38,152 nt of DNA, from NCBI GenBank assembly GCA_044356725.1, contig JBIKVS010000010.1, forward strand, positions 1-38,152, given 5' to 3'. The DNA is from Minisyncoccia bacterium. GTDB lineage: Bacteria > Patescibacteriota > Minisyncoccia > SW-4-49-11. The notes under the pieces are model-generated. The model saw only the letters and a program-made list of their open reading frames with translations, was not told the DNA's origin and searched no databases. Of this stretch, positions 286-25,506 are shown in pieces. A program made the position numbers and the translations under genes. Position 1 is the first letter of the stretch. Every line of letters begins with the position of its first letter.

Positions 286-435
286 ATGTTTGAGTTTGTT
301 ATTGTTACTTTTATTACAGTCTATTTTATCTCTATATTCTATTGTATCATACTATTGTCTTTTTTTAAATTTTGTATTGTGGATAACTGTAAAAAATTAT
401 AAATTATGAATGGTGAATGCTGAATTGGGAGTTTC

Positions 436-2634: not shown

Positions 2635-4137
<1,503 letters not shown>

Positions 4138-15504: not shown

Positions 15505-17118
15505 TTATTTTAATCTTATTTTTTCAAAATAATTGTTTAATTCTTTATAAAACTCGCCATTTACTGCTAAATCTTTTACAAGCTCTCCTTCATAATCATC
15601 GAACTTCATCATAGCTGCACTGGTGTCTACATCAAAAATTTCACTTGGTTTTACAGCTGGTTTGGTATCTGAGATTCCATCCCAAGAATTTATACTAAAT
15701 ATTCTAGTAAGCCCAATATCCCAAGTAGGATCTAAGATAATCCATTTATTATTTATCAAGACCTCTAGCCAAACATGTTCTGCATTATCATTATGTTCGG
15801 CTTTCATTACCTCCTCTGGAATATTTAACTGACTCCATAAAAATGTACATATTCTATATCTACATTCTAAACCTTCTGATTCTAATAGATTTTTGAGTAG
15901 TTCAACTTTATACAGACAACTCCCCCCATACTCACCTTCTGTCTCATCTAAGGCTAAGGGTATTCTATAAGGTATATCTCGAATTTGATTAAAAATTTCT
16001 ATTAAATTATTTATTTTCATAATTACCAAACCCTCTGGGTCAAGATATAATCTGCCTATTTTATAATCCGCATAGCCTTCTGGTCTGTTATTATTAACCG
16101 CATATTTACCTTCTGGAGGATTGGGTATGCTATGCACAGTTTTGAATTGATTATATAACATCACAGTTCTATCGGCATTATAATGCTCATGATAATAACT
16201 TGCTGGACCTTTTATCTGATGATGTACGAAGACTTCCCAATTAATTTGCTCAGTTATAAATTCTATATATGGACCATGATCCCCATAGACTACTCTCTCA
16301 TAGCCTATAGCTAAAATTTTTCCATTTTTATCATAAAATACAAATTCATTTGACCCTTTTTCTGGTAAATTATATTCTTTTTCTATTCTCTGACGGTCTC
16401 GCTCACGATTCGGACTATTGACTGTGGAATAGAATTCACTAGGCTTAGGTGTGGCTATAGGTAAATCCATCCCAACCGCCTGCCAAGACTGATTTAATAG
16501 TTTGTCAAATTCTGCTTTAGATGTATTCTCCAGCTCGATGTAGAATTTGTGTGGATTTGGAGTGTTTTCTTGAATATTATCTTGTACATTAAACTTGGGG
16601 TTCATCCTTAAAATAACATCTTTACGGTTTGGATATTCCTTCATTCCATCATTTGTAAACCCAAAGGAAGTATATAGATTTATAACATATTGATTCCAAA
16701 CTGCTGAGTTATTTTGAATACTATAATTAACAGATCCTTTTAGATGGTAAAATTTTATATTAAGTTCTAACCATAGTTTCAATAACTGTTTGGCAATACC
16801 TTGCCTTCTATAATTTGATTTTACAGCTAATTCAGATATATATATAGTATTTTGGGGATAGAGATTATTATTTTCTGATTGCCTTTCATAGGCTATAATT
16901 ATAGCTATTGGTGTTTTATTATCAAAAACTATAAGACTATGCTCCCATTTCCCATAGAATATTCTATCTTTTTTATAATCTGCTAAAATATCTTGCTCTT
17001 TATATTCAACTAAAGGAATATCATTGACTAAATTAGTTATTTGTTTACTATATATTTTAGCTATATCTTTATCTAATTTATATACAATGTATTTTCCAAT
17101 TTGTCCAACTTCTTTCAT
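15505..17118 (-). CDS. Three-domain fusion: GNAT acetyltransferase + uncharacterised domain + transglutaminase-like domain
   Basis: LAVKSNYRRQGIA..LY.SFGF (GNAT); central GYERVVYGDHGPYIEF...GYADYKIG; C-terminal Cys (SCLYK), His (EHVWLEV), Asp (LDPTWD) pattern. Confidence 0.75.
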   Translation of the reverse strand: MKEVGQIGKYIVYKLDKDIAKIYSKQITNLVNDIPLVEYKEQDILADYKKDRIFYGKWEHSLIVFDNKTPIAIIIAYERQSENNNLYPQNTIYISELAVKSNYRRQGIAKQLLKLWLELNIKFYHLKGSVNYSIQNNSAVWNQYVINLYTSFGFTNDGMKEYPNRKDVILRMNPKFNVQDNIQENTPNPHKFYIELENTSKAEFDKLLNQSWQAVGMDLPIATPKPSEFYSTVNSPNRERDRQRIEKEYNLPEKGSNEFVFYDKNGKILAIGYERVVYGDHGPYIEFITEQINWEVFVHHQIKGPASYYHEHYNADRTVMLYNQFKTVHSIPNPPEGKYAVNNNRPEGYADYKIGRLYLDPEGLVIMKINNLIEIFNQIRDIPYRIPLALDETEGEYGGSCLYKVELLKNLLESEGLECRYRICTFLWSQLNIPEEVMKAEHNDNAEHVWLEVLINNKWIILDPTWDIGLTRIFSINSWDGISDTKPAVKPSEIFDVDTSAAMMKFDDYEGELVKDLAVNGEFYKELNNYFEKIRLK

Positions 17119-17232
17119 ACAATATAATTATTTCATATAATATAGCATATTTTAGATAAAAGAATAAATGGTTATTATATTTTGTAAACTACTATAGTAT
17201 TGATTTCATACTTGGATATCGCTTACAGGCTT

Positions 17233-17826
17233 TTAGCTGGTCGTTGTTTTATTATCTGCTTTTGCTTCATCTTTACTAATTGAAGTCCAATTTACACTAA
17301 AGGCTAAAATAAGTTTCATTGAATATAAAAGTATTACTATTTGGAGCAAATTGTCGGAATAATTTAATATTGGAGTTAGAATTATACACAAAAGTAAAAG
17401 TGTCACAGCAATTATTCTTTGGGTATACTGATTTTTTAAATTCAAAACAATTATTGAGCTTGTCAAAGTCAATAATGATATGCCCATTATAGCTAATGAA
17501 TCACTTGGATAAATCCAAATTAGAATTAAAGGCTGTAAAATATGAAAGAAAATAAACAAGTATCTCTTTCTTAATGACTCAAAATAATAATTGTTTGCTC
17601 CTGTCGTAAAGTTTGCAACAACACCTCCCCCAATGTCGAGAGCCAAGATGGTGAGGATAATTTTTTTAATTGTTGATATGTCTACATTCCATTTCAGTAT
17701 CATTGTCAGTGTTGCAAATGAAACAGAGCAGATAATTATTGCCAACAAATCAAATCTTGTTGTTTCTCGACCGAAAAGTTCAACTAGAAACTTATTTACT
17801 TGAATTTTCTTATTTTGCATATTCAT
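17233..17826 (-). CDS. Multi-pass membrane protein, hypothetical (cassette-like gene)
   Basis: 197 aa with about 6 TM segments and a DIGGGVVANFT motif. Confidence 0.8.
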   Translation of the reverse strand: MNMQNKKIQVNKFLVELFGRETTRFDLLAIIICSVSFATLTMILKWNVDISTIKKIILTILALDIGGGVVANFTTGANNYYFESLRKRYLFIFFHILQPLILIWIYPSDSLAIMGISLLTLTSSIIVLNLKNQYTQRIIAVTLLLLCIILTPILNYSDNLLQIVILLYSMKLILAFSVNWTSISKDEAKADNKTTTS

Positions 17827-17844
17827 TATTTTATTGTCTTTTTA

Positions 17845-17872
17845 CAGTAACCACATACGCAGTGTTAGCTGA
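17845..17872 (-). other. Collapsed attC-like site (R'' box joined almost directly to next R'-like box)
   Basis: Minus strand TCAGCTAAC-ACTGCGTATGTG-GTTACTG; AGCTAAC is complementary to the GTTAGCT core at the 5' end of the same cassette (18519-18525). Confidence 0.55.
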
Positions 17873-17921
17873 TGTAATGTAGATTTTTCTTTTGGCGACA
17901 GCCAAACAAATAAAAGAGCAA

Positions 17922-18455
17922 TTATTTTTCGTCGTTTTTTGGAATCCAATAATCTCTAAATGTCCATGTTGTTCCTCTGGCCGTTGTTTTCTCATATTCT
18001 CTATGGACTTTACCACCAAGTGACTCTGCTAATTTACAACTTGATTTATTCGCAACCGCACAAGGCCAGAGGATATGACCATATTCAAGATGCTCTTCAG
18101 CCCATTGCTTAAGAGCTGCTGCGGCTTCTCTGCCATAACCGTGACCATGAGCAGATTTTTTTAGCCATCCACCCATTTCAGGATTTTCTTCTTGGAGATC
18201 TTCCAGAGCCATACAGCCAATAAACTCTCCAGTTTCTTTTAGCAAAATAGCCATGAATAACTGCACGCCTTCTTTCATTTCAGTTTCACGATTTTTCATC
18301 CGTCCTTTTAAAATTTCTAGACTTTCTGGCGGGCCATAGTTCATATATTTAATGACTGGATCACGATATTCTAAAAAAATATTCTCCGCAAAATCTACAT
18401 TTCCAGACACTAATAGCAGTCGCTCTGATTCTATTTTTACTTTGCTTAAATTCAT
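17922..18455 (-). CDS. GNAT N-acetyltransferase, RimJ/RimL family (cassette gene)
   Basis: IESERLLL, GEFIGC, HGHGYGREAA and N..S.KLAESLG motifs. Confidence 0.9.
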   Translation of the reverse strand: MNLSKVKIESERLLLVSGNVDFAENIFLEYRDPVIKYMNYGPPESLEILKGRMKNRETEMKEGVQLFMAILLKETGEFIGCMALEDLQEENPEMGGWLKKSAHGHGYGREAAAALKQWAEEHLEYGHILWPCAVANKSSCKLAESLGGKVHREYEKTTARGTTWTFRDYWIPKNDEK

Positions 18456-18521
18456 ACTAAAAAAATAATTGCTCTTTTATTTTATGTCCGAAGGAGCAAG
18501 AAAGATATAAGTTATCTCAGC

Positions 18522-18659
18522 TAACACAAATTTTTGCGAAGTTCGACTATTAATCGCAAATTAAATGTATTTATATAATATCATTTTTAATTATTTTATA
18601 CCAGTGTATATAAATTATATATAAATATATGATTAGGAATTTTTTAATTTCATATTTTA
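18522..18659 (-). repeat. 138-bp direct repeat copy 1; attI-like site ending at a GTT core
   Basis: Aligns without gaps to 19886-20023 with about 11 mismatches by hand count; similarity stops at GTGTTA|G. Confidence 0.85.
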
Positions 18660-18701
18660 CTACTATGTACTTACAATATTATAACATATTTTAACTTCCC
18701 A

Positions 18702-18739
18702 AAACAAAAAAGTCCTTGCAATGATCTACTTTCCCCACT
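18702..18739 (-). repeat. Perfect 38-bp duplicate of 5S rRNA 3' end plus trailing T tract (att-like)
   Basis: aaacaaaaaagtccttgcaatgatctactttccccact is identical to 20538-20575. Confidence 0.92.
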
Positions 18740-18751
18740 TTTTCAAAAATT

Positions 18752-19147
18752 TTAATATCTATCCTTAATATATTTAAGAACTTCTATATCGTGGTCAATA
18801 ATTTTTAGCCCATCAATTTCTGAAAGATGAAACCAACCAAGATTTTGACCTTCACATAAAGTGAGTTTTTTACTAGGATCATATTCTTCCATAAAAATAT
18901 GTTTTTCGTTAGTTTCGTTTTTCCACAAAAAATCTTGCTTTAATATTAATCTCGGGTTTTGGAGAGTGTAATTCAACTCTTCAAGTGTTTCTCTCCTAAC
19001 GGCTTTTTCAGGAGTTTCACCAGCTTCAATACCTCCACCGAAAAAAGCCCAATATCCTGGTAAGTTTTTTGCATCCTCAGTACGATGCTGAAGCAATATT
19101 TTTTTGTCTTTATCATACAATATGATAATAGCTAAGTTTCTTGCCAT
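18752..19147 (-). CDS. NUDIX hydrolase
   Basis: Nudix box [22 protein letters not shown]. Confidence 0.93.
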
Positions 19148-19193
19148 ATAGAAATTCTTAAATTTAAACTTAAATTTTACTTGATGGGCAGAT

Positions 19194-19259
19194 CACATAA
19201 AAAGTATACAAGAAAAAAGAAGCTTTTGGAAGTATATTTTGTATAGTTGCTGTTATGTG
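19194..19259 (-). other. Degenerate attC-like site
   Basis: Minus strand CACATAAC-AGCAAC-TATACAA...TTGTATA-CTTT-TTATGTG; the gene stop codon lies inside ACATAAC, which is complementary to GTTATGT at 19883-19889. Confidence 0.6.
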
Positions 19260-19837
19260 CTGGGCGGTGTTTCCATGATATTTATACCTTTTGATTTTAA
19301 ATAAATGTAAAAATCAGAATAATTTACAATATCATTTTCAAGAACAGCTTCATATATATCAGTACTATAAAATTCTTTTCGATAATTTATTTGCTTATAA
19401 CATTTAGATTTAATATCAAGAATTATTTCCCTATTGGATTTATTTAGTAAATTGCATATTTTAGAGGTATATGAATTTAATTTTTCGAATTCATTTTCAT
19501 TGATATACCAAATATCAATTTTCCATTTATTATTATAAGAATCTTTAAGATAAATTCCCCAGTATAAACCAACAGGTAAATGCTTTGCTTTTAATAAGTA
19601 TTCATTTCTCCAATGCATTTTCGAAGGAGTAAAATGGGATTCAATTTGTTTCCCTAATTCGAAAAATTGTTGTCTGGATATTTCATTATTTACAAGATAA
19701 ATATCTAAATCTCTCCATGTCATCAGATTGAGTTTATAGCTACCATGCAGATTTACAACACCATATTTTTCGAGAATATTGTGTAATTTATTATGGTATA
19801 GAATATTGTCGGCTTCACTTTTTAAAATATCATTCAT
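19253..19837 (-). CDS. Pol-beta-like nucleotidyltransferase-fold protein (cassette gene)
   Basis: hGSY..nLMtwrDLDI motif and a later WKIDIW strand. Confidence 0.7.
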   Translation of the reverse strand: MNDILKSEADNILYHNKLHNILEKYGVVNLHGSYKLNLMTWRDLDIYLVNNEISRQQFFELGKQIESHFTPSKMHWRNEYLLKAKHLPVGLYWGIYLKDSYNNKWKIDIWYINENEFEKLNSYTSKICNLLNKSNREIILDIKSKCYKQINYRKEFYSTDIYEAVLENDIVNYSDFYIYLKSKGINIMETPPST

Positions 19838-19885
19838 AAAAATAATCCATAAATTATTGAATCCGTTTCAAAGCTGTCTTGTACA

Positions 19886-20023
19886 TAACACTAATTTTTG
19901 CGAAGTTCGACTATTAATCGCAAATTAAATGTAGTTATATAATATCATTTTTAATTATTTTATTCTAGTATGTATAAATTATGCATAAATATATGATTAC
20001 GAAGTTTTTAATTTCATACTTTA
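19886..20023 (-). repeat. 138-bp direct repeat copy 2; attI-like site ending at a GTT core
   Basis: See copy 1; ends GTGTTA|TGT. Confidence 0.85.
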
Positions 20024-20097
20024 ACATAATTATTATATTTAATTATATCGTATAATTTTATATACCCCATAATAATACATAAGTTTGTAAATATATA

Positions 20098-20126
20098 TTG
20101 ACATTTTTAATATTTTATGGTATAAT
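20098..20126 (+). promoter_or_regulatory. Consensus sigma70 promoter of orphan gene
   Basis: TTGACA-17 nt (ending TGG)-TATAAT, perfect consensus. Confidence 0.85.
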
Positions 20127-20153
20127 GACTTTTGTAAATTTGAGGAAACTCTA

Positions 20154-20477
20154 GTGCTTTTATCAGAACAACCTGAATACCACGAAATGATTCGGGGTAT
20201 TCTCGAAGATGGTCCGCTCTCACCGAGAAGACTACTCGAAAAAGTTATTTTGGATACCAGTGGATGCAATCCCAACAGTGAATTTGGTATCCAACATGCT
20301 CTAGAATGCTTTCTGGGATTCTCGATTCCAGAAGGTGAAGAGGAAGGATTTGTATTCCTCCAGGGAGATTTGGTAAGAGCAACCACAATTAGTTATGACA
20401 TCCTTCTCAAGGATAGTCAGTCTATATGGAATGATATTTGCGACATTCCAGACGTAGAAATACCACATCAGACTTGA
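20154..20477 (+). CDS. Hypothetical acidic protein (orphan module)
   Basis: GTG start with GAGGA SD, own promoter and terminator; 107 aa. Confidence 0.7.
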   Translation: MLLSEQPEYHEMIRGILEDGPLSPRRLLEKVILDTSGCNPNSEFGIQHALECFLGFSIPEGEEEGFVFLQGDLVRATTISYDILLKDSQSIWNDICDIPDVEIPHQT

Positions 20478-20503
20478 TACTTCACCACTCTCCAAGCATT
20501 CCC

Positions 20504-20535
20504 ACCTCAGTCAGCAATGGCTGGGGTCTTTTTTT
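20504..20535 (+). terminator. Intrinsic terminator
   Basis: ACCTCAGTCA-GCAA-TGGCTGGGGT followed by C and a T7 tract. Confidence 0.8.
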
Positions 20536-20546
20536 ATAAACAAAAA

Positions 20547-20659
20547 AGTCCTTGCAATGATCTACTTTCCCCACTAGGAGTATCATCGACTCACAGAGGC
20601 TTAACTTCTAGGTTCGGAATGTAACTAGGTGGACCCCTCTGCGATAAATCACAAGGACA
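20547..20659 (-). rRNA. rrf: 5S ribosomal RNA
   Basis: Terminal helix GTCCTTG/CAAGGAC, CCGAAC loop and GAAGTTAAG motif; lies downstream of 23S. Confidence 0.95.
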
Positions 20660-20770
20660 TTTTTGTTCTCGAACACAAGATTATCTAAAAAAGATAATCT
20701 TATGCTCCAGAATTGGTGTAAATTTAGGTAATGCAATACTACATTCTCTTGAGTATCAATCAAAAGTTAA

Positions 20771-23780
<3,010 letters not shown>

Positions 23781-23991: not shown

Positions 23992-24163
23992 GGGTTTTGG
24001 GAGAGGAATTTTATATATTCCAAAATATAGTATATTTATAATGATATTAAACCATAGCACTCATTAAAAACACCTACAAGAAAGATATTCATACTATAAA
24101 TAATTTACTATATATTAAGTATGTGTGGATGTATAATATACTTAATTTTTAAGTTAATTAACC

Positions 24164-24192
24164 TTGACAAAAACCGCAAAATATGCTATGTT
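24164..24192 (+). promoter_or_regulatory. sigma70 promoter of orphan gene
   Basis: TTGACA-17 nt (ending TGC)-TATGTT. Confidence 0.7.
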
Positions 24193-24273
24193 TGTGAAGC
24201 ACACCCAGCTTGATTGCAGGTCTTGAAGCAGAAAGACCTCCCAAACTGGACTCGTCCCTTGGAGGGCAAAACA

Positions 24274-24747
24274 ATGTTCGTTTCCAATCTCTGCGTCCGT
24301 ACCGGACGAATCCTCAGTCTCATCGACTGGGAAGAAGTGAGCAAGATCGTGTTCCACGGTCTGATCGCCCTGATGGTCGGCATCTGGGTTGCCGGGGAAA
24401 CTCTCGGCCACTGGGTGCATCGCCTCAACGACTGGCTAGCCCATCATTGGGTTCAGCTGATTGTGCCCCAGACTTCCGTTGAAACGGAACAGGCACTGAT
24501 CATCGTCGAGGAAGTCTCGACCACTACCCTACCCATCGCCGTCGAGGTTGAGCCGAAGCTCCCTCCAGCAACAACTGAAGTGGTCGAGACTCCAGTACTT
24601 GACGAGCCCCCGCCAACATCACCATGCAAGCGCCGCAGGCAGTCCGCACCACCAACAGCGGTGGTAGTGACTGAAGAGCTTGAGCTCTTGCAAAAACGAC
24701 GCCCTCATGGTCGCCGAGCTCACGAGAGACGTCATGAGGCTGCTTGA
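24274..24747 (+). CDS. GC-rich hypothetical protein, one TM helix, Pro/Glu-rich and Arg-rich tail (orphan module)
   Basis: ATG 24274 preceded by GGAGGG; 157 aa; promoter and terminator flank it. Confidence 0.8.
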   Translation: MFVSNLCVRTGRILSLIDWEEVSKIVFHGLIALMVGIWVAGETLGHWVHRLNDWLAHHWVQLIVPQTSVETEQALIIVEEVSTTTLPIAVEVEPKLPPATTEVVETPVLDEPPPTSPCKRRRQSAPPTAVVVTEELELLQKRRPHGRRAHERRHEAA

Positions 24748-24809
24748 CAATCAATATACCAAGACAAGAGAATATAATTCTCACCATTACCACTAACCCA
24801 CCCTAGAGA

Positions 24810-24835
24810 CCCCAGCATAGTGCTGGGGCTTTTTT
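24810..24835 (+). terminator. Intrinsic terminator
   Basis: CCCCAGCA-TAG-TGCTGGGG followed by C and a T6 tract. Confidence 0.85.
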
Positions 24836-24870
24836 ATTTTTAAAAATAATATTTTTCTATATAGCAATAA

Positions 24871-24900
24871 TTGACAAAATGTAATAATTATGCTAATAAT
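24871..24900 (+). promoter_or_regulatory. sigma70 promoter
   Basis: TTGACA-17 nt (ending TGC)-TAATAA(T). Confidence 0.65.
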
Positions 24901-24944
24901 CAACTGCAAACTTTTATCTCCAACATCAGGAGAAGGAGCTCTTT

Positions 24945-25451
24945 ATGGACACTGCTTGTGTAGCTTTTGCCTTTGGAGCGCCTAGCTCCACAATGGCAAA
25001 CCAAAAAATTGCCAAAATGGCTTGCGGGATACAAATCCCTTCATACCCTGGAATCTACACCCAAATAGATGTAGATATAACTCTTTTACAAAAGGCTGGG
25101 TTTAGAGACAGGATGCAAGTGCTCTACACTGTAGAAAGACCCGGTTATCCACCACCAACATTGAGAATAGCTAGAGGAGCCGTTGCTTGGGCAATGGCGA
25201 ACAATTTAAGCACATTATATATAGCTTGTGCTTACCCACATCTGTGGAGATGTAGAAGAGATCTCAAGTTAGCAATCAATGAAAAGAAAGCTAATATCGC
25301 AATCAGAGTTTGCCCTGAAGCCTTGAGCAAAAAAGGCTGGTTCTGTAAAGACTGCACTCAATCTAGAACCAAGACCAAATCCAATTGGTATTTCAGAGAA
25401 TTAATTCTCATGATAATGCCAGTATGGCTATACAAAAAGATCGCTAGTTGA
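24945..25451 (+). CDS. Hypothetical protein (possible YdcF/DUF218-like alpha/beta fold)
   Basis: AAGGAG SD; VAFAFG N-terminal strand and AYPHLWRC motif reminiscent of the H..R motif of DUF218 proteins. Family call is tentative. Confidence 0.7.
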   Translation: MDTACVAFAFGAPSSTMANQKIAKMACGIQIPSYPGIYTQIDVDITLLQKAGFRDRMQVLYTVERPGYPPPTLRIARGAVAWAMANNLSTLYIACAYPHLWRCRRDLKLAINEKKANIAIRVCPEALSKKGWFCKDCTQSRTKTKSNWYFRELILMIMPVWLYKKIAS

Positions 25452-25474
25452 AAGCGCCTTCAGGCCGTTTAGAT

Positions 25475-25506
25475 AGTTCAGAGTAACCCAATACTCTGAA
25501 CTTTTT
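25475..25506 (+). terminator. Intrinsic terminator
   Basis: AGTTCAGAGTA-ACCCAA-TACTCTGAACT plus a T tract. Confidence 0.8.

Follow-up and report, generated by a model that had tools for sequence, protein, structure and literature searches.

We analysed a 38,152-nt stretch of DNA (the window) from a Minisyncoccia bacterium, in which repeated elements and bracketed genes follow the 23S and 5S rRNA genes on the minus strand. Our reading of this locus, to which we assign a probability of about 0.8, is that it is a decayed sedentary chromosomal integron located after the 23S-5S unit of a Parcubacteria genome within the candidate phyla radiation (CPR), combined with a hotspot at which DNA is stacked using the rRNA genes as an anchor. 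The underlying integron type seems to be a new variety built on known integron architecture and junction logic. The window is contig 6 of a 20-contig, 897-kb genome that is 99% complete and is designated G000; G002, G004, G005, G008, G009 and G011 are among its 11 congeners, L-numbers denote metagenome or relative loci, and X-numbers denote lake-water sequencing runs. All the metagenome runs were available as contigs, in which circular forms or rare variants would not show. An earlier sequence-only reading had put forward the same region as a candidate for an undescribed integrase-less system. We recovered the repeats, the 38-nt duplicate of the 5S end, the bracketing GTT and AAC motifs and the gene positions that it listed, and its assignments of the GNAT and NUDIX genes were supported by Pfam.

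The element at the centre of our reading is a 138-nt direct repeat, the two copies of which are 92% identical (Table 1). In the metagenome locus L036, this element sits between the cargo and a divergent recombinase ORF of 277 aa and overlaps the start of that ORF. The first codons of the ORF are the reverse complement of the 5′ part of the element, and the peptide encoded by copy 1 is the N-terminus of the L036 protein. The two G000 copies share a single deletion endpoint yet differ by 8%, and longer truncated integrase stubs are retained in G002 and L033. As judged from its sequence, the element consists of the 10 initial codons of an otherwise deleted tyrosine-recombinase gene, followed by an intergenic region and an attI site ending in GTG|TT. 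Since the gene to which these codons belong is intact in L036, we regard the units as deletion remnants of an ordinary integrase-attI-cassette layout, and not as the minimal non-autonomous units, or the integrase-less system of a new kind, that had been suggested.

Scanning of public collections with the 22-nt core of the element retrieved two congeners (G002 and G005) and seven metagenome loci, and this core was 100% conserved across all the copies. Copy 2 of G000 is identical in the loci L032, L034 and L035. Eight distinct copies of the element are conserved through GTG(T/G)T and unrelated past that point, as the sequence-only reading had expected, so that an attI is joined to differing cassettes at a fixed G|TT. 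A search of the genome for further copies, which it had recommended, gave none: full-length copies number only two in the 897 kb, and the next best of the 36 matches listed covers 42 nt. This count rules out a dispersed mobile element.

At seven of the eight distinct copies, an inverse core located downstream of the cargo pairs in sequence with the first 6–8 nt following GTG|, and L033 is ambiguous. The cassette starts and their inverse cores are TTATGT and ACATAA(C) for G000 copy 1, TTAGCTGA and TCAGCTAA(C) for G000 copy 2, TTGTAC and GTACAA(C) for G002, TTAGCCAA and TTGGCTAA(T) for G005, TTATGTG and CACATAA(C) for L036, TTCTGG and CCAGAA(C) for L037, and TTATATG and CATATAA(C) for L038. In G000, the element junctions read GTGTTATGT (19891–19883) and GTGTTAGCT (18527–18519), and the inverse cores read CACATAAC (19259–19252) and CAGCTAAC (17871–17864). 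This junction rule supports the earlier proposal that the GTT...AAC brackets are integron-cassette signatures, and the attI that had been proposed for the element is also upheld.

Complete boundary sites of the attC type are present in relatives. In L036, the 5S is followed by the convergent recombinase gene, the element and then co-oriented cassettes with clear attCs. Full attCs in L036, L037, L038 and G002 have the organization ...CATC-NNNTAAC-A-(L″)...(L′)-RAAC-GTTNNNN, and their predicted fold is a basal stem with two inner hairpins. An alignment of six sites analysed by RNAalifold gave 26 pairs, 18 of which show compensatory changes, and R′ agrees with the following R″ at 4/4 consecutive sites (L036 and L037). 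In minimum-free-energy folds, the L stem is predicted to be uninterrupted (9–13 bp), without extrahelical bases, in four of the six sites. From these six sites, all from the genus of G000, we built a covariance model, R1. Sites with R″-L″...L′-R′ boundaries and a folded stem were also clear in L072–L079. Our own scanner for AAC...GTT stems also flags the pre-5S stem, and hence it served only as a source of leads.

Some of the cassettes in these arrays are of unusual composition. A GC-rich cassette of ∼175 nt that contains no ORF, starts with TTCTGG, has CCAGAAC as its inverse core and folds very stably (−45 to −50 kcal/mol) occurs in reverse-complemented L036 (5035–5176 and 5900–6041) and in L037 (112–253 and 975–1111), and it recurs within and between arrays of genomes with roughly 30–35% GC. 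In L038 the first cassette is likewise visibly rich in GC, and together with the ∼175-nt cassette this suggests foreign cargo. A DUF805 RNA motif (Rfam RF03081, 70 bits) lies inside an L038 cassette (344–411, minus strand), upstream of a membrane-protein ORF.

The recombinase of L036 contains Phage_int_SAM_4 and Phage_integrase domains. Among NCBIfam models it agrees best with NF040815, named ‘XerA / integron integrase’, at 216.5 bits (cut-off 220), and with TIGR02249, named ‘integron integrase’, at 208 bits in two stretches (cut-off 265). The best relative of solved structure is IntI4 of V. cholerae (2a3v), in which residues 11–184 and 250–316 align with residues 11–184 and 207–273 of the L036 protein, and the 65 IntI4 residues in between (185–249) face only 22 residues. 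The archaeal XerA structures 4a8e and 5hxy align with the L036 protein end to end (E = 7e-36 and 2e-34, respectively). As the IntI4 alignment skips residues 185–249 while XerA aligns fully, the protein is an IntI/Xer-like recombinase devoid of the IntI-specific domain; the extra domain around patch III was not found in the L036 protein. A passage of PMC9668308 treats this additional domain as defining for IntI, citing Messier and Roy (2001).

Homologues of this recombinase (35–46% identity) were found in 34 of 401 sampled genomes of the class. We examined eight of these loci, which were extended to 11–18 kb and were not chosen at random (four for scanner hits and four for long contigs), and observed the following. 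The proteins are 271–289 aa long. R1 matches are present in all the eight loci (E = 1e-11 to 1e-20), always on the 5′ side and on the opposite strand of the recombinase gene; among the short loci they are present in 6 of 22. The hexamer predicted at attI from the inverse core of the first attC lies 44–125 nt upstream of the start codon in six of the eight extended loci. Of nine pairs of consecutive R1 matches, five fit perfectly (one by eye), two fit at 6/7 nt and two do not fit; in one of these last two, an intervening site missed by R1 fits. L079, from another CPR family, carries the cytosine-methyltransferase cassette of L036 with a different but self-consistent core and a nearly identical attC. 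In a separate count, R1 sites were present in 15 of 151 genomes of the class, 10 of which are recombinase-positive. None of the 30 loci fetched for the homologues contains a 5S gene, which indicates that the 5S position is specific to the genus of G000. In other CPR families the recombinase genes have miaA-like, infB-like or other neighbours, yet attC arrays always lie beside them.

A comparable arrangement was noticed by eye outside the CPR. On the Flavobacteriaceae plasmid NZ_CP092416.1 (L082; 4886–5750), a dihydrofolate-reductase-family gene lies between attC-like sites that obey the rule linking cassette start and inverse core (TTGGCAT / ATGCCAA). Some 1.4 kb away from this gene is one for a ‘xerA / integron integrase’ with 47% identity, and the R1 match there is only 14.8 bits.

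In G000 itself, the system appears to have decayed. The intI gene is represented at the locus by 10-codon remnants only, while intact genes are present in the related contigs L036 and L079. As had been noted earlier, the window encodes no tyrosine recombinase. Phage_integrase is matched only once in the whole genome, by an XerC/D-like gene of 347 aa (contig 19), which scores 81 bits with TIGR02249 (cut-off 265). Neither G000 nor its 11 congeners yielded a protein of the L036 type, save for a remnant in G002, and close homologues of the L036 recombinase were absent from 17 species genomes of the order (E ≤ 1e-60) and from 401 genomes of a phylum sample (E ≤ 1e-65). Given that a 99%-complete genome has no integrase of this type, the platform is most likely inert.

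The cassette boundaries of G000 point in the same direction. R1 gave one weak match in the window, directly after the GNAT gene (20 bits, E = 3e-4 over 4.5 kb), where only the 5′ half of an attC is left. A second attC type, which recurs in L038 and is also found in G005, can be aligned with the 3′ flank of the NTase-like gene (72% mean column identity), the stem of this flank being broken in G000. The NUDIX and membrane-protein genes have no recognisable attC. As the attCs of G000 are truncated or degenerate and no further ones were found, we consider its cassettes to be fossils. GTTACTG, listed earlier ahead of the membrane gene, was rejected as the core site of a membrane-gene cassette: it lies in the 5′ arm of the truncated attC, and the membrane gene is not followed by an inverse core that would match it. 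Of the cargo proteins, GNAT matches Pfam Acetyltransf_3 (3.2e-19), and the NTase-like protein (194 aa) has no Pfam match; PF01909 occurs in 14–16% of the members of its look-alike clusters in the Atlas, which serves as a lead only. The NTase-like gene was matched in one other genome among 400 of the class.

The second component of our reading concerns the 5S end. The 5S gene was assembled in 9 of the 12 genomes of the genus, G000 included, and the genes between it and a conserved glutamine-cyclotransferase anchor gene (seen in eight of the nine) differ in all the nine regions. The four cargo genes of G000 have no homologue in the 5S-downstream regions of eight congeners. As the sequence-only reading had anticipated for the regions downstream of rrf, the cargo following the same GTG|TT differs between relatives and the gene content is not fixed. 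In G009, the 5S-proximal promoter region runs directly to the flank at 17187 (17118–17187 being the region upstream of the gene for a GNAT and transglutaminase-like protein), and contigs of a co-occurring relative in two runs (X7 and X17) likewise join 17186 to 20045. Excision within the G000 strain was considered for this joint and rejected, as in the contig data it belongs to a more abundant relative with sequence differences.

We refer to the segment from the orphan gene to the NUDIX gene as unit 1 and to the segment beginning with the 5S fragment as unit 2. The 5S fragment of unit 2 and the spacer after it match true 5S flanks of congeners in BLASTN, with 89% identity in G004 (18738–18636), 87% in G002 (18738–18671) and 83% in G011 (18738–18676). 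The 3′ flank of the NUDIX gene ends at the junction with the 5S fragment, 12 nt past the stop codon. The junction of the NUDIX gene, the 5S-end copy and the element is spanned with zero differences by contigs from two further lake-water runs (X7, 18540–18991; X12, 18064–18837), so that the arrangement is no misassembly. Over 23S-5S, strain L034 and G000 share 99.3% identity, and over element 2 and GNAT they share 99.9%. L034 is without unit 1, and its 5S is followed by a ricin-type lectin-domain gene, a gene for a 121-aa protein, an exact 76-nt 5S fragment, a methyltransferase gene and element 2. Very close strains therefore hold different recent insertions at the 5S end. The left junctions of both the 5S-fragment copies (38 nt in G000 and 76 nt in L034) have no GTT core, which excludes attI × attC recombination as the cause of the stacking. 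Accumulation at the 5S 3′ end, as the earlier reading had it, is thus supported by two independent events, while the mechanism that it had suggested is not. We interpret the 5S-end copy as a probable scar of recombination anchored in the rRNA genes, either by one-sided homology or by a single crossover with a circularised fragment.

We propose the following history for the locus. The ancestral layout would have been that of L036, with the 5S, a convergent recombinase gene, an intergenic region containing attI (GTG|TT), and cassettes pointing away from the recombinase, each ending in an attC of the form R″(NNNNAAC)-L″...L′-R′(GTTNNNN). In G000, the recombinase gene would have been deleted down to its first 10 codons, and this stub together with attI would constitute the 138-nt element. 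The NTase-like and GNAT genes would be the first cassettes at two attI copies, their starts still being complementary to their own inverse cores, and without a recombinase in the genome these cassettes are presumably now fixed. The tandem arrangement may have come from a second, non-integron process. A 5S-proximal segment of a diverged relative (orphan gene, element 1, NTase-like gene and NUDIX gene) would have entered by recombination, for which the conserved rRNA genes supplied the anchoring homology. This insertion would have left behind the 38-nt 3′ end of the old 5S and its own flank of spacer, element 2, GNAT and subsequent genes.

Related known phenomena are genomic islands at tRNA and tmRNA genes, with tandem accretion, and homology-facilitated illegitimate recombination. 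The locus resembles these in that inserted DNA stands directly after a small RNA gene and is followed by a partial copy of its 3′ end, and in that the site is reused. It could thus be asked whether small integrative islands have accreted in tandem at the 5S 3′ end, with the recombinase as island integrase, the 5S end as attB, the partial 5S as attR and the cassettes as cargo. Direct repeats of the small-RNA-gene 3′ end do flank inserted DNA in two strains, both repeats terminate at the same GTTT, in L036 the gene for the recombinase borders on the 5S end, and a tRNA gene adjoins the homologue of L048 (from G091, the genome that also contains L079). However, the repeats are of unequal length, neither insert has an integrase, and the L034 insertion does not contain even a recombinase remnant. 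Moreover, unit 2 is not closed by a third 5S fragment, and the target is a 5S rRNA gene; no paper on 5S as an island target was met, although no search was aimed at that question. The varied neighbours and constant attC arrays of the recombinases in other CPR families also speak more for an integron integrase than for an island integrase specific to the 5S. We therefore consider the island explanation unlikely.

The proposal of the sequence-only reading itself, that the units are working non-autonomous attI platforms, loaded by an integrase in trans and multiplying at rrf, is quite improbable in our judgement. It would account for the two attI copies with different first cassettes, the fully conserved 22-nt core and the 5S-fragment duplications in two strains, and intact integrases of the L036 type do exist in related populations. 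However, such an integrase is missing from the genome, the one tyrosine recombinase of which is XerC/D-like, and the truncated integrase gene in each unit shows derivation from an autonomous layout. The attCs of G000 are broken, and the L034 insertion contains no attI, in addition to the coreless left junctions described above. Finally, a duplicated AT-rich promoter or leader region with chance GTT/AAC heptamers can practically be dismissed: promoter-like sites are indeed common in this AT-rich genome (29 found versus 23.5 expected) and 7-nt inverted repeats are readily spotted by eye, but the element overlaps a recognisable integrase N-terminus, the junction rule holds in seven of the eight distinct copies, the attCs covary, and R1 matches lie beside recombinase homologues across the class.

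Several observations weigh against our own reading. The attC evidence in G000 is thin, comprising one 20-bit R1 match and one flank known by similarity alone, with nothing for the NUDIX or membrane-protein gene. R1 matches no further site in the genome (E ≤ 0.01) and none in 10 of the 11 congeners, the exception being a site in G002; the sole homologue of the NTase-like gene in the class (G398) has no R1 site in its 3.6-kb locus. The recombinase is ∼43 residues short where IntI4 has its specific domain, it scores under the cut-offs of both TIGR02249 and NF040815, and its action on attI and attC is a predicted function. The mechanism that duplicated the 5S end is read from its end products only. 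The 22-nt core is invariant even in integrase-less genomes, which could hint at a different function, for instance that of an operator or of an RNA. Lastly, inverted repeats of ∼67 nt flank the GNAT ORF (18461–18527 and 17862–17929; 22 nt perfect and 30 nt at 80%) and are outside integron logic. We also observed that these repeats span from the first base of the cassette to its inverse core; a circular cassette would fold them into one long hairpin with GTT/AAC at the tip.

Among known systems, the closest are the sedentary chromosomal integrons, such as that of V. cholerae with IntI4/VchIntIA and uniform attC repeats. They have in common with the CPR loci that the integrase gene diverges from attI, that the cassettes share one orientation, away from that gene, that crossover takes place within GTT, that cassette starts are complementary to their own inverse cores, and that the attC family is homogeneous across the lineage, its variable part being branched. 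The CPR loci differ in the 271–289-aa integrase without the IntI-specific extra domain, in the predicted attC L stems without extrahelical bases, the feature of integron attCs by which strand choice is directed (four of six folds) and in the host genome of ∼0.9 Mb, and G000 differs further in its deleted integrase and decayed attCs. In having cassette remnants without an integrase, G000 is similar to categories of IntegronFinder, namely CALIN (attC clusters without an integrase) and In0 (an integrase without cassettes). As quoted in PMC11386340, CALIN requires at least two recognisable attCs. G000 has one truncated and one degenerate attC and a single R1 match in the window, and thus falls short of CALIN; it retains two attI sites with integrase stubs, which place it outside both categories. 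The L036 recombinase shares length, two-domain build and catalytic residues with the chromosome-dimer recombinases XerA, XerC and XerD. Unlike these, it adjoins attI and attC arrays and does not act at a dif site; G000 is without it and has a separate Xer-like gene of 347 aa.

Beyond this locus, we are inclined, though only slightly, to a wider conclusion: that Parcubacteria-class CPR bacteria hold a widespread integron lineage. Its minimal, Xer-length integrase would lack the IntI-specific domain, so that searches of the IntegronFinder type, with the IntI domain as their key, would not call it complete. Its attCs would be without extrahelical bases, one attC family and whole cassettes (for example, the cytosine-methyltransferase restriction-modification cassette of L036 and L079) would be common to CPR families, and some cassettes would be far richer in GC than their host. 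G000 would then represent the decay of this lineage and a second route of gene gain, the rRNA-anchored stacking of foreign 5S-proximal segments. No CPR phylum is among those listed in the accessible text of the IntegronFinder 2 paper. We met no description of CPR integrons or of domain-less integron integrases in a literature search of incomplete coverage, which included portions of PMC13323075, PMC9024848, PMC9668308 and PMC11386340.

The IntI-specific domain is regarded as necessary for integron recombination, and software recognises integron integrases by it. If the wider conclusion is true, integrons working without that domain, on attCs without extrahelical bases, would make the minimal needs of folded-DNA recombination testable, and surveys keyed to the domain would count too few integrons across entire phyla. 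The CPR bacteria, whose genomes are very small, would also possess a dedicated gene-capture system; ∼8–10% of the sampled genomes of the class have the recombinase or attCs. For G000 itself the message is smaller, namely a fossil platform and a strain-level hotspot beside the 5S.

Table 1. Features of the 5S-proximal region, with positions numbered from the first nucleotide of the window
Feature	Position	Strand	Basis or remarks
GNAT + transglutaminase-like gene, conserved flank	15505–17118	−	Pfam and comparison with relatives
Predicted membrane protein gene (197 aa)	17233–17826	−	No attC; last gene of the segment missing in G009-like relatives (∼17187–20044)
Cassette 2	17802–18524	−	Starts TTAGCTGA; GNAT ORF 17922–18455; inverse core AGCTAAC 17870–17864; attC 5′ half only, 17878–17802
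Element copy 2	18522–18659	−	Integrase remnant lacking its initial ATG (ATA at 18617, IYKYMIRNFL), then intergenic region and predicted attI; 22-nt core 18536–18557; GTG|TT between 18525 and 18524
42-nt spacer	18660–18701	−	Homologous to true 5S flank of G004, G002 and G011
38-nt repeat copy B	18702–18739	−	100% identical to copy A; 5S 3′-end fragment, read as recombination scar
NUDIX hydrolase gene	18752–19147	−	Pfam PF00293, 1.9e-18
Cassette 1	19180–19888	−	Starts TTATGT; NTase-like ORF 19253–19837; inverse core ACATAAC 19258–19252; degenerate attC to ∼19180
Element copy 1	19886–20023	−	Integrase remnant (ATG at 19981, + strand, MHKYMITKFL), intergenic region, predicted attI; 22-nt core 19900–19921; GTG|TT between 19889 and 19888
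Orphan gene, convergent with 5S	20098–20527	+	ORF 20154–20477, 107 aa, no family
38-nt repeat copy A	20538–20575	−	Last 27 nt of 5S, T-run and GTTT (TTTTTTGTTT)
5S rRNA gene, last gene of 23S-5S unit	20549–20656	−	Rfam RF00001, 59.3 bits
23S rRNA gene	20771–23777	−	RNA-gene annotation of the window

The ‘orphan module’ reported next to the 5S is present, and can now be described as a plus-strand gene with its own promoter, TTGACA-17-TATAAT at 20098–20126 (12/12 consensus), and its own terminator at 20504–20527. Its protein gave neither a Pfam match nor an Atlas lead, and homologues follow the 5S in G005, G008 and G009. The promoter with its surroundings (20091–20125) matches dozens of sites in related genomes and looks like a shared strong-promoter module. 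Neither the element nor the flanks of the cassettes matched a known RNA family in an Rfam search over 17000–20700 (E ≤ 0.1). The pre-5S stem (GAGAAC-AAAAATGTCCTTG...CAAGGACTTTTTT-GTTT; 20538–20672) has an AAC...GTT geometry resembling attC, which is also found in congeners, and the sequences of the relatives part ways directly after its GTTT.

The 537-aa ORF of the conserved flank is a fusion of GNAT with a transglutaminase-like protein, and relatives have it separate or split (189 + 170 aa in G009; 355 aa without the GNAT part in L032). Upstream of the 23S, the region 24000–25500 has 44–45% GC compared to ∼31% for the genome, and contains two plus-strand ORFs (177 and 168 aa) without a Pfam match and no Rfam match. 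The 16S gene (2636–4137) is on the same strand ∼16.6 kb downstream of the 23S-5S, with protein genes and a tRNA gene in between, and the rRNA genes are unlinked.

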